This document shows, piece after piece, positions 62,063 through 63,596 of a DNA stretch of 64,000 nucleotides. Both the position numbers and the translations under genes were made by a program. The notes below the pieces were generated by a model. It saw nothing but the letters and a program-made list of their open reading frames with translations, had not been told where the DNA came from and did no database searches. Origin of the DNA: Alphaproteobacteria bacterium (lineage in GTDB: Bacteria > Pseudomonadota > Alphaproteobacteria > UBA7887). The first letter of the stretch is position 1. Every line of letters starts with the position of its first letter. The stretch spans positions 405,989 through 469,988 of the forward strand of contig OZ243958.1 of assembly GCA_965214495.1 (NCBI GenBank), given 5' to 3'.

Positions 62063-62809
62063 GTGCGCGACATACGCGAACGGTATACGGGCGTCATTGG
62101 CAGGATGGCGGCCAAATACGGTAGCCGCCAAGGCGTTGGGAATTATTGGATCCCGAAGAATGCTACACTGCCTGAATGTATCTGGTATGCGCAAAGGTAT
62201 ATTGTAGGGAGCCGGTCTCATTACCGGTACAATAAATACAAAAGAGCTTTGCAATCTGCGTTGCTGTATCGTCATCCCAAGATACGACAAAACGGAAAAA
62301 TGATCCACATCAATATCGGGTGTGGCCCTGGTTTATTTTCCTGGGTCGTAAGAGATCATTTCCGCACCAACCTGTTTGTCAATGTCGAATCTCACGGGTA
62401 TGATCACTCTCGAAACATGGTTGCACTCGCGCGGTTATTATCGAAGAAACTCCGGGAAGATACGCATCTTTCATTTTACCATGACATGGACAAGCTTTTT
62501 GTGGCTGTGCTGTCTGGCGAGTCCGTTGTTCGCAATGTCGTCGTCACACTGGGACATGTTTTAGTTCAGACCGTCGATAACGAAATCGCGACGAAAGATT
62601 TTGCACGCATTATCGCGAAATTCGCCAAATCTGCTAACTGTCAAGTGGTGGCTGCCGATGCGCACAGTGGAGAACGATTCGATATTTTCAAAAGGTCATG
62701 TAGAAATTTGAGAAATGCTTTGGACAAGCATGGGTTGACTGCCAGCATGTCCATCAATTCCGGATCGTTGATGTTCGCCCGGATCAAACAGGAGGCCACG
62801 CATGAATGA
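62063..62809 (+). CDS. Class I SAM-dependent methyltransferase-like protein of unknown specificity, encoded in a low-GC (about 45%) segment.
   Basis: 248 aa. IHINIGCGPGLFSWVV matches Rossmann-MTase motif I (hh-D/N-h-G-C-G-x-G), and VNVESHGYD has the acidic post-I residue. The base composition is strongly atypical for this window, and codon usage is AT-rich. Confidence 0.55.
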   Translation: MRDIRERYTGVIGRMAAKYGSRQGVGNYWIPKNATLPECIWYAQRYIVGSRSHYRYNKYKRALQSALLYRHPKIRQNGKMIHINIGCGPGLFSWVVRDHFRTNLFVNVESHGYDHSRNMVALARLLSKKLREDTHLSFYHDMDKLFVAVLSGESVVRNVVVTLGHVLVQTVDNEIATKDFARIIAKFAKSANCQVVAADAHSGERFDIFKRSCRNLRNALDKHGLTASMSINSGSLMFARIKQEATHE

Positions 62810-63596
62810 GCAATTCCAGATCTCTTTCGACGACGTCGGGGTCGAGTCGCCATCGAATCGGCCTCCGGGAAGCGACCATACGGCGCACGTGCCGTCCGTT
62901 CTCGGTCTGGCCTACCTCCCGCGGTTCTTGTCCGACAGCGCGCAGGCCGCGTTATGGGACCGTATCGAAGGTCTTCCCTGGCGCGATGACCTGGAACGTC
63001 GGGTCCAGCATTACGGCTGGCGATACGACTATCGAGCGCGAACCGTCGCGCGTGACATGCATATCGGCCCCTTGCCGGAATGGCTGCGACAAATCGCCCG
63101 GCGTCTTTACGCTGAAACCAGCGTGTTCGACTGCGAACCCGATCAGGCGATCGTGAACGAGTATCTCCCAGGCCAAGGCATTGCTCGGCACGTTGACCGA
63201 CAATGCTTCGGCCCCGCCGTGGCGACGATCTCGCTCGGCGATGCGTGGCTCATGGACCTGCGTCCGTTACGCGGGACCAAGGGCGTTGCCGAGCAGATCC
63301 TGTTGGAGCCAGGGTCGGCGCTGGTGCTGACCGATGCGGCACGCTGGCGTTGGCTCCACGGTATCGCCCCACGTAAGTACGAACGCGCGAACGGCGGCAA
63401 GCGACCGCGAAAACGCCGGATTTCGGTGACTTTCCGAACCGTTGTCCTTTCCGGCGACGATGCGCCGGGCCGGGCTATACCGGCTCGAGGATCACCGGCA
63501 GGCCGTCCACCGGCTTCGGGATCGGGATCACCCGCCAGCGCGGGCGATGGCCGTCCGACAGCGCGACCCGGTAGCGCCGGAGAAACTGGAAGCTGA
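62802..63596 (+). CDS. alkB: AlkB-family 2OG-Fe(II) dioxygenase (alkylation-damage repair demethylase-like).
   Basis: It aligns with E. coli AlkB at NEYLPGQGIARHVDRQ (H-x-D iron ligands), LLEPGSALVLTDAARWRWLHGIAP (second His) and RISVTFR (2OG-binding Arg). The start overlaps the methyltransferase stop by 8 nt. The C-terminal ~40 codons overlap the convergent P450 gene and are probably GC-rich readthrough before the first stop. Confidence 0.7.
   Translation: MNEQFQISFDDVGVESPSNRPPGSDHTAHVPSVLGLAYLPRFLSDSAQAALWDRIEGLPWRDDLERRVQHYGWRYDYRARTVARDMHIGPLPEWLRQIARRLYAETSVFDCEPDQAIVNEYLPGQGIARHVDRQCFGPAVATISLGDAWLMDLRPLRGTKGVAEQILLEPGSALVLTDAARWRWLHGIAPRKYERANGGKRPRKRRISVTFRTVVLSGDDAPGRAIPARGSPAGRPPASGSGSPASAGDGRPTARPGSAGETGS

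Follow-up and report, generated by a model that had tools for sequence, protein, structure and literature searches.

This report deals with two overlapping genes near the end of a 64,000-nucleotide (nt) stretch of alphaproteobacterial DNA (lineage UBA7887; contig OZ243958.1, positions 405,989 to 469,988 of the forward strand, assembly GCA_965214495.1), hereafter the window. The first gene codes for a protein resembling the class I S-adenosylmethionine (SAM) methyltransferases, referred to as MT, and the second for a 2-oxoglutarate (2OG)/Fe(II) dioxygenase of the AlkB family, referred to as AlkB; the two together will be called the cassette. The reading that we favor, to which we give a probability of roughly 0.45, is that the pair is an accessory, antagonistic writer/eraser module, in which AlkB would oxidatively undo a mark that MT places on nucleic acid.

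The MT gene (62063..62809, forward strand, GTG start, 248 amino acids (aa)) represents an uncharacterized family, here the A1 family, and carries the SAM-binding loop HINIGCGPG, i.e., motif I, at 62306..62332 (+), as located with the family alignment. The AlkB gene (62802..63596, forward strand) codes for 264 aa of the ALKBH8-like type, termed group 2A in bacteria, with a conserved core that spans about residues 30-215. The AlkB start codon (ATG, 62802-62804) precedes the MT stop codon (TGA, 62807-62809), so that the genes share 8 nt (62802..62809, +), and a ribosome-binding site read from the sequence, AGGAGG at 62790..62795 (+), lies within the 3' end of the MT gene, 6 nt before the ATG. Taken together, the overlap and this site indicate that the two genes are translationally coupled, as had been proposed in an earlier note on the same DNA, whose reading-frame coordinates, 8-nt overlap, and Rossmann methyltransferase motif (IHINIGCGPG) were all recovered when the open reading frames (ORFs) were read again. 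At homologous loci, the two genes either overlap by 4 nt, as in several cases, or are spaced by less than about 120 nt. A public gene call for MT (P0001, 234 aa) begins at Met15, 14 codons late; the GTG start is favored because the family alignment has a conserved N-terminus, M..IRDxY.

The window has an overall GC content of 70.6%, and a compositional dip extends from 62045 to about 63450. The MT gene has 47.7% GC and a third-codon-position GC content (GC3) of 52.6%, against 0.89-0.92 in three neighbor genes, and 75 of its 248 codons (30%) are rare in those neighbors (<0.2% use), compared with 33 of 213 in AlkB. The AlkB ORF has 64.7% GC and a GC3 of 67.5%, and its GC content, taken in blocks of 99 nt, climbs from about 0.60 to about 0.69 along its length. 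The earlier note had already called this composition atypical and had named GC3 as the analysis that could refute this; the GC3 values strongly bear it out, while the figures of the note (about 45% for MT, 50 to 60% along AlkB, and about 69% for the window) are replaced by those given here.

The AlphaFold2 (AF2) model of MT (predicted local distance difference test, pLDDT, 88; predicted template-modeling score, pTM, 0.88) has a seven-strand Rossmann topology and a helical N-terminal lid. The predicted strands lie at residues 78-85, 106-113, 136-139, 158-163, 192-198, 225-232, and 236-243, and they form the arrangement that defines class I SAM-methyltransferases, namely parallel β1-β5 followed by a β6-β7 hairpin. 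The family also has the sequence marks of this class, a (D/E)xGxGxG motif following β1 and an acidic residue that closes β2: in the alignment, G86, C87, G88, and P89 are invariant within D-x-GCGPGLFSWV, D84 is near-invariant, and the invariant D114 (GYD) ends β2, and there is a GHVLVQ segment after β4 and an N-terminal HYRY..Y motif. When the model was compared with the Protein Data Bank (PDB) by Foldseek, 511 matches were obtained at E<=1e-3, with TM scores of 0.4-0.6, and the best 50 of those listed are all SAM-binding proteins of class I fold, nearly all of them methyltransferases. From these motifs and the model, MT is predicted to be a Rossmann-type class I SAM-methyltransferase-like protein, in agreement with the earlier note. 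The window protein has Asn84 (codon 62312-62314) at the acidic position of motif I, where Asp is found in 106 of the 109 members with a recognizable motif and Asn in only one other family member; MT of the window may thus be attenuated through this residue.

Searches with the MT sequence place it in no characterized group. It remains below all curated thresholds, with PF08242 as its best Pfam match (18.7 bits against a cut-off of 30) and zero NCBIfam matches, and generic methyltransferase models are matched, sub-threshold and at motif I, by 29 of 35 family members. Among PDB sequences nothing significant was retrieved with either the single sequence or the family profile, no methyltransferase there scoring below E 0.06, and no characterized metabolic O-methyltransferase family was matched, whereas such a match is what the earlier note had named as speaking against it. 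A word search gave 48 clusters of homologues, none of them named. The family is rare: in a set of 1.84 billion representatives it accounts for 262 clusters at 50% identity, and a survey of 185,579 species genomes gave 20 loci, each from an uncultivated metagenome-assembled genome (MAG). A pattern search of the JGI metagenomes for the family returned zero matches, and the isoelectric point of MT was uninformative as a cue to nucleic-acid binding.

Two more specific assignments were considered for MT. A DNA amino-methyltransferase (N6-adenine or N4-cytosine) does not fit, as the family has an invariant G-H-V-L-V-Q after β4 in place of motif IV, (D/N/S)PP(Y/F/W), and the protein has only 248 aa. 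A methyltransferase of the Trm9/ALKBH8 type is not supported, PF08241 (Methyltransf_11) being matched weakly by 11 of 35 members, at best with E 0.0018. Fusions of MT with AlkB were sought among the long members of the family, and none was found; the extra length contains no domains.

The second protein belongs to the AlkB family, since it matches PF13532 (2OG-FeII_Oxy_2) with E 1.8e-23 and 84.2 bits against a gathering cut-off of 31.2. The iron triad H130-x-D132...H186 and the 2OG-binding arginines R206 and R212 (Rx5R) are intact, and these five residues are invariant in 19 locus sequences and 39 database sequences. Among PDB sequences, human ALKBH8 matches it best (E 8.8e-18) and ALKBH6 next; the alignment with ALKBH8 from residue 65 reads RRVQHYGWRYDY versus RRVKHFGYEFHY, and the lid motif RRVQHYG(W/Y)xYxY is common to ALKBH8 and the AlkBs of the clade of the window protein. 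The AF2 model (pLDDT 85) has the double-stranded β-helix fold, with ALKBH6 (TM 0.70-0.76) and ALKBH8 as its top structural matches, and then AlkB, ALKBH5, and ALKBH3.

By sequence, AlkB is placed as a new member of the known bacterial group 2A, or ALKBH8-like, proteins, for which representatives from R. denitrificans, R. felis, and A. tumefaciens are known. It is 47% identical to the group 2A member named from plasmid pTB4 of Roseobacter denitrificans and shares with this group the ALKBH8-like lid as well as the single-domain architecture, as the Pfam scan gave no further domains (no RNA-recognition motif (RRM), Zn-finger, or methyltransferase domain). Another likeness is the patchy occurrence in contexts that are variable or often plasmid-borne; group 2A proteins have been reported from host-associated bacteria, often on plasmids (PMC2790896, van den Born 2009). 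The studies on this group treated AlkB alone and reported no methyltransferase partner (PMC2790896, PMC4051686), whereas AlkB of the window resides in a conserved two-gene cassette. An orthologue of Escherichia coli AlkB, the DNA/RNA demethylase of the adaptive response (PRK15401/TIGR00568), was considered and rejected, with NCBIfam scores of 33.9 bits against 267 and 26.8 against 231; the two proteins share the superfamily fold and the Fe/2OG ligands, but differ in the nucleotide-recognition lid, and the window protein is not found in an ada/alkB context. The label of an AlkB-like demethylase in the earlier note is right about the family and too specific about the reaction, the closest characterized relative, ALKBH8, being a hydroxylase.

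Linkage, Composition, and Alleles of the Pair

The co-occurrence of the two genes in other genomes, which the earlier note had proposed to check, is close to complete. Homologous loci are designated here by L numbers. An AlkB of the group 2A clade lies directly beside MT in 24 of the 25 informative loci, the exception being L015, while L025, too short to be judged, is outside this count. The hosts belong to six or more lineages (Alpha- and Gammaproteobacteria, Nitrospira, Acidobacteria, Dehalococcoidia, and Limisphaerales), the gene order is flipped in L010, L011, and L013, and distant members of the MT family (E 1e-43 and 4e-28) also have AlkB as the next gene. A third conserved partner was sought around the pair, and none recurs. 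As a side observation, MT of L015 is flanked by the gene of a secreted S8-like protease and by a convergent gene of 726 aa.

The two genes have also diverged together. Pairwise identities of MT and of AlkB correlate with a Pearson coefficient of 0.85 over 171 locus pairs, with means of 35% for MT and 56% for AlkB, and within an allele pair the synonymous divergence (dS) is about the same for both genes. Each is under purifying selection, the ratio of nonsynonymous to synonymous divergence (dN/dS) being 0.27-0.36 for MT and 0.15-0.26 for AlkB. The sequence comparisons thus indicate that MT and AlkB are inherited together, MT being merely the less constrained of the two. Replacement of the MT gene alone was considered and rejected, as the divergences of the two genes correlate and the variable segment covers both. 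Bicistronic, tightly coupled, and co-inherited, the pair has the layout of toxin-antitoxin genes.

When the cassette decays, MT appears to go first, an asymmetry seen in a small sample. AlkB is intact while MT is interrupted by an insertion sequence (IS) in L026, frameshifted in L023, and shortened in L024; in L013 both genes are damaged. In L026 (3052-5000), the IS, with a DDE_Tnp_1 transposase, lies within MT, and the AlkB gene does not differ from that of an intact cassette on another contig of the same sample (L027). Lone group 2A AlkBs, i.e., those with no MT, are common.

The compositional step found in the window recurs wherever the cassette was compared with its host. In 20 of 20 loci, the GC content of MT is below that of AlkB, which in turn is below that of the flanks (Wilcoxon p = 2e-6), and the two genes of one cassette are on average 12 GC points apart. 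The GC content of AlkB follows that of the host (slope 0.88, r 0.90), whereas that of MT is independent of it (slope 0.18, r 0.24; mean 49%, range 41-56%). In the average of 17 loci, the GC deficit has a sudden onset where MT begins (-0.17 to -0.20) and shrinks in the course of AlkB (-0.10 to -0.03). Low GC is a lasting property of the MT gene, and not the mark of an insertion event.

Closely related strains carry strongly diverged cassettes at the same site. The flanks of L002 and L006 are 97-99% identical in nucleotide sequence (HldE 98% and UvrD 96% aa identity; dS 0.06-0.13), whereas their cassettes (8001-9424 in L002) have 52-88% nt identity, with 59% aa identity for MT, 77% for AlkB, and dS of 0.7-1.1; the divergence runs precisely from the first codon of MT to the stop of AlkB. 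Conversely, four contigs, each from a different sample, share one cassette allele (0-2 differences in 1424 nt), although the upstream flanks of these contigs differ by 1.5-5.6% (25-96 differences in 1700 nt), and the downstream ones by about 2% in 5 of 6 pairs and by zero in the remaining one. Whole cassette alleles are therefore exchanged or maintained at a fixed site. Local hypermutation of MT was rejected as an explanation of its low GC and fast divergence, as MT genes of the same allele have 0-1 differences despite diverged flanks and dS is equal for MT and AlkB. A weaker form of the same pattern separates the window from L009, with a flank dS of 0.5-0.65, an AlkB dS of 1.4, and a saturated MT dS. 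By analogy, such a pattern would be like that of loci under diversifying or frequency-dependent selection.

Related Modules and Genomic Contexts

A wider sample of 80 metagenomic and 18 viral loci with group 2A AlkBs (40-51% identical) was used to look at what else accompanies this clade. A methyltransferase lies directly beside AlkB, on the same strand, in 35 of the 71 metagenomic loci with enough flanking sequence. In 21 of the 71, the neighbor is a methyltransferase-like protein of about 490 aa whose C-terminal domain is distantly related to the A1 family (hhalign 87%, E 4e-6), and in another 14 it is BMT5-like, matching PF10354 (E down to 9e-33), a family of methyltransferases that act on N3 of rRNA uridine. 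N3-methyl pyrimidines are classic substrates of AlkB-type enzymes. The BMT5-like loci are L044, L046, L051-L053, L059, L062, L069, L088, L090, L099, L104, L107, and L108; in these, the gene lies directly upstream of AlkB, often overlapping it, and on several of the contigs the methyltransferase ORF appears truncated, to 107-131 aa.

In the culturable cyanobacterium Picosynechococcus sp. PCC 7002, plasmids pAQ5 and pAQ6 each carry a related module, in which a protein with P-loop AAA_33/KTI12-like and WYL/WCX parts is followed by a class I methyltransferase of 292 aa, distantly related to the window family (hhalign 96%, E 4e-9), and by AlkB. KTI12 belongs to the eukaryotic pathway of 5-methoxycarbonylmethyluridine (mcm5U). 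The two modules are paralogous (L033, pAQ6 35165-43728; L137, pAQ5 20461-29024), with a first protein of 686-688 aa, and an Abi family gene is found nearby on pAQ5.

On nine aquatic metagenome contigs (L048, L050, L057, L058, L074, L083, L084, L095, and L117), a protein of 586-618 aa, the methyltransferase of about 490 aa, and AlkB form an operon. Both of the two 586-618-aa proteins that were scanned match a 2CompART ADP-ribosyltransferase above threshold, and that of L058 also has a SAP match and a sub-threshold match to the 2CompARG glycohydrolase. Judged by these domains, the three-gene operon would place two writer/eraser pairs next to each other.

Genes of conflict type are frequent around these modules: other neighbors of the MT-AlkB or AlkB loci include SIR2_2, RloB-like, and Abi family proteins, the WYL/WCX P-loop protein, and insertion sequences. 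On a 2-Mb contig (L037, 3112-6136), the cassette lies between recA and recX and is preceded by an N6_N4 DNA methyltransferase gene. The small plasmid pTB4 has AlkB together with BrnT/BrnA, and the gene upstream of this AlkB is not an MT. Phages and giant viruses contribute 18 contigs with a group 2A AlkB, and in none of the 17 with adequate flank is MT beside it. The lone AlkBs of phages are found in head-morphogenesis regions (L118-L132, from IMG/VR, and L076), in several contigs next to portal, capsid, and DUF6107 genes; the giant-virus contigs carrying a group 2A AlkB are L131 and L135.

A Proposed Writer/Eraser Module and Its Alternatives

In the module that we favor, MT would methylate nucleic acid, most likely a base of RNA or of single-stranded (ss) DNA, at a position where the methyl group does harm. 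AlkB, with Fe(II), 2OG, and O2, would oxidize this methyl group away, removing either the whole mark or the off-target marks of MT, and would thereby shield the cell from its partner. Translational coupling would guarantee that AlkB is present whenever MT is made, and the AT-rich MT gene with its rare codons would limit how much of the dangerous enzyme is made. In this way, the module would act like DarT/DarG, as an addiction or defense cassette, and not as housekeeping repair. We infer that MT and AlkB have a common substrate, which is probably a nucleic-acid base.

This reading is favored because a rare-codon, AT-rich MT gene stands beside a host-adapted AlkB gene, because the two are coupled, and because MT is lost while AlkB is retained; it is favored as well because of the lone AlkBs of phages, the pairing of AlkB with a methyltransferase of the N3-uridine type, the 2CompART neighbor, and the dynamics of the alleles. 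The earlier note had suggested a modification/anti-modification or toxin/antidote pairing; the population, composition, and context evidence is consistent with that suggestion, to which a sequential pathway like that of ALKBH8 stands as a serious rival.

The more specific form of this reading, in which the cassette would be the methylation counterpart of DarT/DarG, is put forward tentatively. MT would then be a base-methylating toxin making N1- or N3-type marks on RNA or ssDNA, AlkB its antidote, the diversity of alleles the result of conflict, and the phage AlkBs a means of counter-defense. DarT-DarG, which ADP-ribosylates a base and reverses this, shares with the cassette the proposed bicistronic writer/eraser logic, and on the nine contigs described above MT-AlkB lies directly behind a protein of the 2CompART type. 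The two systems differ in the group transferred (methyl versus ADP-ribose) and in its reversal (oxidative versus hydrolytic), they have no sequence relationship, and the eraser of the cassette would need O2, Fe(II), and 2OG.

Several observations weigh against an antagonistic module. L015 has an apparently intact MT (5995-6741) with no AlkB within 6 kb, the sole such case, and the loci are not phylogenetically independent, so that the counts given above overstate the support. The top structural matches of MT mix small-molecule, rRNA, and protein methyltransferases and offer no cue to nucleic-acid versus small-molecule substrates, and the MT family was not found on the phage, plasmid, and viral contigs searched. 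In PADLOC-DB v2, MT retrieves only PDLC01079, "methyl transferase", at E 0.012, and AlkB retrieves nothing, neither result being significant. Other causes could also account for the AT-richness and the diversity of alleles. A simple eraser of 1-methyladenine (m1A) and 3-methylcytosine (m3C) is also at odds with the R. denitrificans group 2A protein, whose repair activity on methyl or etheno lesions was negligible (PMC4051686, Zdzalik 2014), and ALKBH8 hydroxylates mcm5U to a stable product, without demethylation (PMC4051686).

The strongest rival, which we regard as somewhat unlikely, is sequential hypermodification by what would be a split ALKBH8: MT would add a methyl or methyl-ester group to an already modified tRNA or rRNA base, and AlkB would hydroxylate this group to give a stable hypermodified nucleoside, a product that could, e.g., make the RNA resistant to a nuclease or antibiotic. 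In eukaryotic ALKBH8, the methyltransferase and AlkB domains act in succession, from 5-carboxymethyluridine (cm5U) to mcm5U and on to 5-methoxycarbonylhydroxymethyluridine (mchm5U). The AlkB of the window is nearest to ALKBH8 by sequence and to ALKBH6/ALKBH8 by fold and retains the ALKBH8 lid motif, a KTI12/AAA_33-matching P-loop protein precedes the pair in PCC 7002, and strict co-inheritance fits a two-step pathway equally well. The authors of the group 2A studies, who left the natural substrate open, favor an RNA modification resembling mcm5U and found little repair (PMC4051686, PMC2790896), although knockout of the A. tumefaciens protein left the wobble modification of tRNA-Gly(UCC) unchanged (PMC4051686).

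As a comparison of architectures, ALKBH8 is an RRM-AlkB-Zn-finger fusion with a Trm9-like methyltransferase, and its likeness to the cassette lies in the linkage of a methyltransferase and an oxygenase, presumably for one substrate. In the cassette, however, the genes are separate, usually MT and then AlkB, there is no RRM or Zn-finger, alleles are swapped, and MT is not Trm9-like by any test, with Methyltransf_11 matched weakly as given above and no PDB sequence match. Moreover, housekeeping genes for RNA modification would not be expected to have deeply divergent alleles in near-identical genomes, AT-rich rare codons, an IS in the gene of the first enzyme with the second retained, or phage homologues that supply the second step alone; composition, allelic diversity, and the lone AlkBs of phages are less well explained by this rival.

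A second rival, a milder form of the favored idea that we hold to be unlikely, supposes that MT methylates a specific target to some benefit, for example as a self-mark or for resistance, and leaves AlkB to remove only the off-target lesions. The linkage of AlkB to several unrelated methyltransferase families is what would be expected from collateral damage, and the N6_N4 DNA methyltransferase of L037 adjoins a cassette. The precedent is that of eukaryotic DNMT1/3 and ALKB2, which co-evolve, i.e., are kept or lost together, as the DNMTs make 3-methylcytosine (3mC) as a by-product, a lesion that AlkB-type enzymes repair (PMC9246332). These eukaryotic genes are unlinked and pair a C5-cytosine DNA methyltransferase with an AlkB of the ALKBH2 type, whereas the cassette is operonic and combines another methyltransferase with another AlkB clade. 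An unusually sloppy enzyme would be needed, given that most bacterial methyltransferases have no dedicated AlkB; allelic hyperdiversity and the AT-rich MT gene would go unexplained; and the repair of lesions is poor in the group 2A clade (PMC4051686).

The earlier note had taken the GC step as the sign of a recent acquisition, i.e., of a foreign cassette whose low GC came from a low-GC donor, and this we now consider improbable. Strongly atypical GC3 and the patchy distribution of the MT family across phyla are in keeping with it, and since alleles move between strains by recombination, the allele of the window could be younger than the site. Nevertheless, positions 61007-63458 of the window are collinear with 4888-7382 of L009, a 3.7-Mb alphaproteobacterial MAG, in exactly the order DUF6524, secreted protein, MT, AlkB; because L009, whose flanking proteins are only 66-69% identical to those of the window, has the same junction and the same GC step, the cassette must have been long resident there. 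A single low-GC donor is also hard to reconcile with two genes that lie 12 GC points apart yet have the same dS, or with an MT whose GC is low in all hosts beside an AlkB near host GC. Around the cassette, no insertion scars, integrase, tRNA, flanking repeats, or Rfam RNAs were found, and the search for promoters and terminators gave nothing meaningful.

Least credible of all is the tailoring of a small molecule or protein by methylation and hydroxylation, with no nucleic acid involved: a methyltransferase and a 2OG oxygenase are a common tailoring pair, and the top structural matches of MT include many small-molecule methyltransferases (FPP-MT, ChlM, MrsA, UbiG, and NovO), but no biosynthetic genes recur beside the pair, the characterized members of the PF13532 AlkB clade act mostly on nucleic acids, the nucleotide-recognition motif of the ALKBH8 type is kept, and the partner methyltransferases of related operons include an rRNA methyltransferase family.

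As far as can be told, neither the MT family nor the cassette as a system has been described before; the logic of the cassette resembles those of ALKBH8, DarTG, and DNMT-ALKB2. In the literature searched we found no account of an MT-AlkB operon, of BMT5-AlkB pairs, or of a methyltransferase toxin countered by AlkB, although a prior mention may exist. If the antagonistic reading is true, the cassette would represent a new class of enzymatic toxin-antidote or defense system working by reversible methylation, and if its DarT/DarG-like form is true, it would give the first physiological role for group 2A AlkBs and the first case of an AlkB acting as antidote to a methyltransferase toxin. These AlkBs would have dedicated methyltransferase partners from at least three families, and through them the question of the group 2A substrate, open in 2014 for proteins known since 2009 (PMC2790896, PMC4051686), becomes directly testable, the more readily as a related module is present on plasmids of the genetically tractable PCC 7002. 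The cassette is also a natural example of a methyltransferase gene whose composition is uncoupled from the genome while the co-translated AlkB gene ameliorates, and it warns against equating low GC with recent transfer.

Genes Flanking the Cassette

The cassette lies, as described in the earlier note, between the gene of a small secreted protein and a cytochrome P450 gene. The former (61484-62044, +) has a signal-peptide-like N-terminus and is directly upstream of MT; it is preceded by the gene of a DUF6524 membrane protein (61024-61461, +; PF20134, E 7e-47). The P450 gene is represented in the window by its 3' part (63475..64000, -; PF00067, E 2.3e-45) and is convergent with the cassette.

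The AlkB ORF has no stop at the usual end of the family, where homologues of 209-241 aa terminate near FRTV(L).., and runs on for about 40 extra codons into a convergent overlap of 122 nt with the P450 gene (63475-63596). This C-terminal extension (63471..63596, +) is non-conserved and antisense to the 3' end of the P450 gene; the pLDDT falls below 50 at residues 220-223, and GC3 falls to 0.52-0.55. In L001-L005, a convergent UvrD gene likewise shares about 22 nt with the 3' end of AlkB.

Farther upstream, rpsU, coding for ribosomal protein S21 (PF01165, E 2e-20), occupies 60766-60975 (+), just before the DUF6524 gene, and a listed ORF at 60490-60975 is a spurious long 5' extension of it. Consecutive genes for giant repeat proteins fill about 36 kb of the window (24318-60401), among them an ORF of 6323 aa at 24318-43289. 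As a guess, the leucine-rich-repeat and Calx-beta giants, together with the mix of lineages among the loci, may point to sponge symbionts as the source. The giant proteins bear Calx-beta, He_PIG (Ig-like), and leucine-rich-repeat domains, and such a set, adhesin-like or eukaryote-like in character, suggests a host-associated lifestyle.

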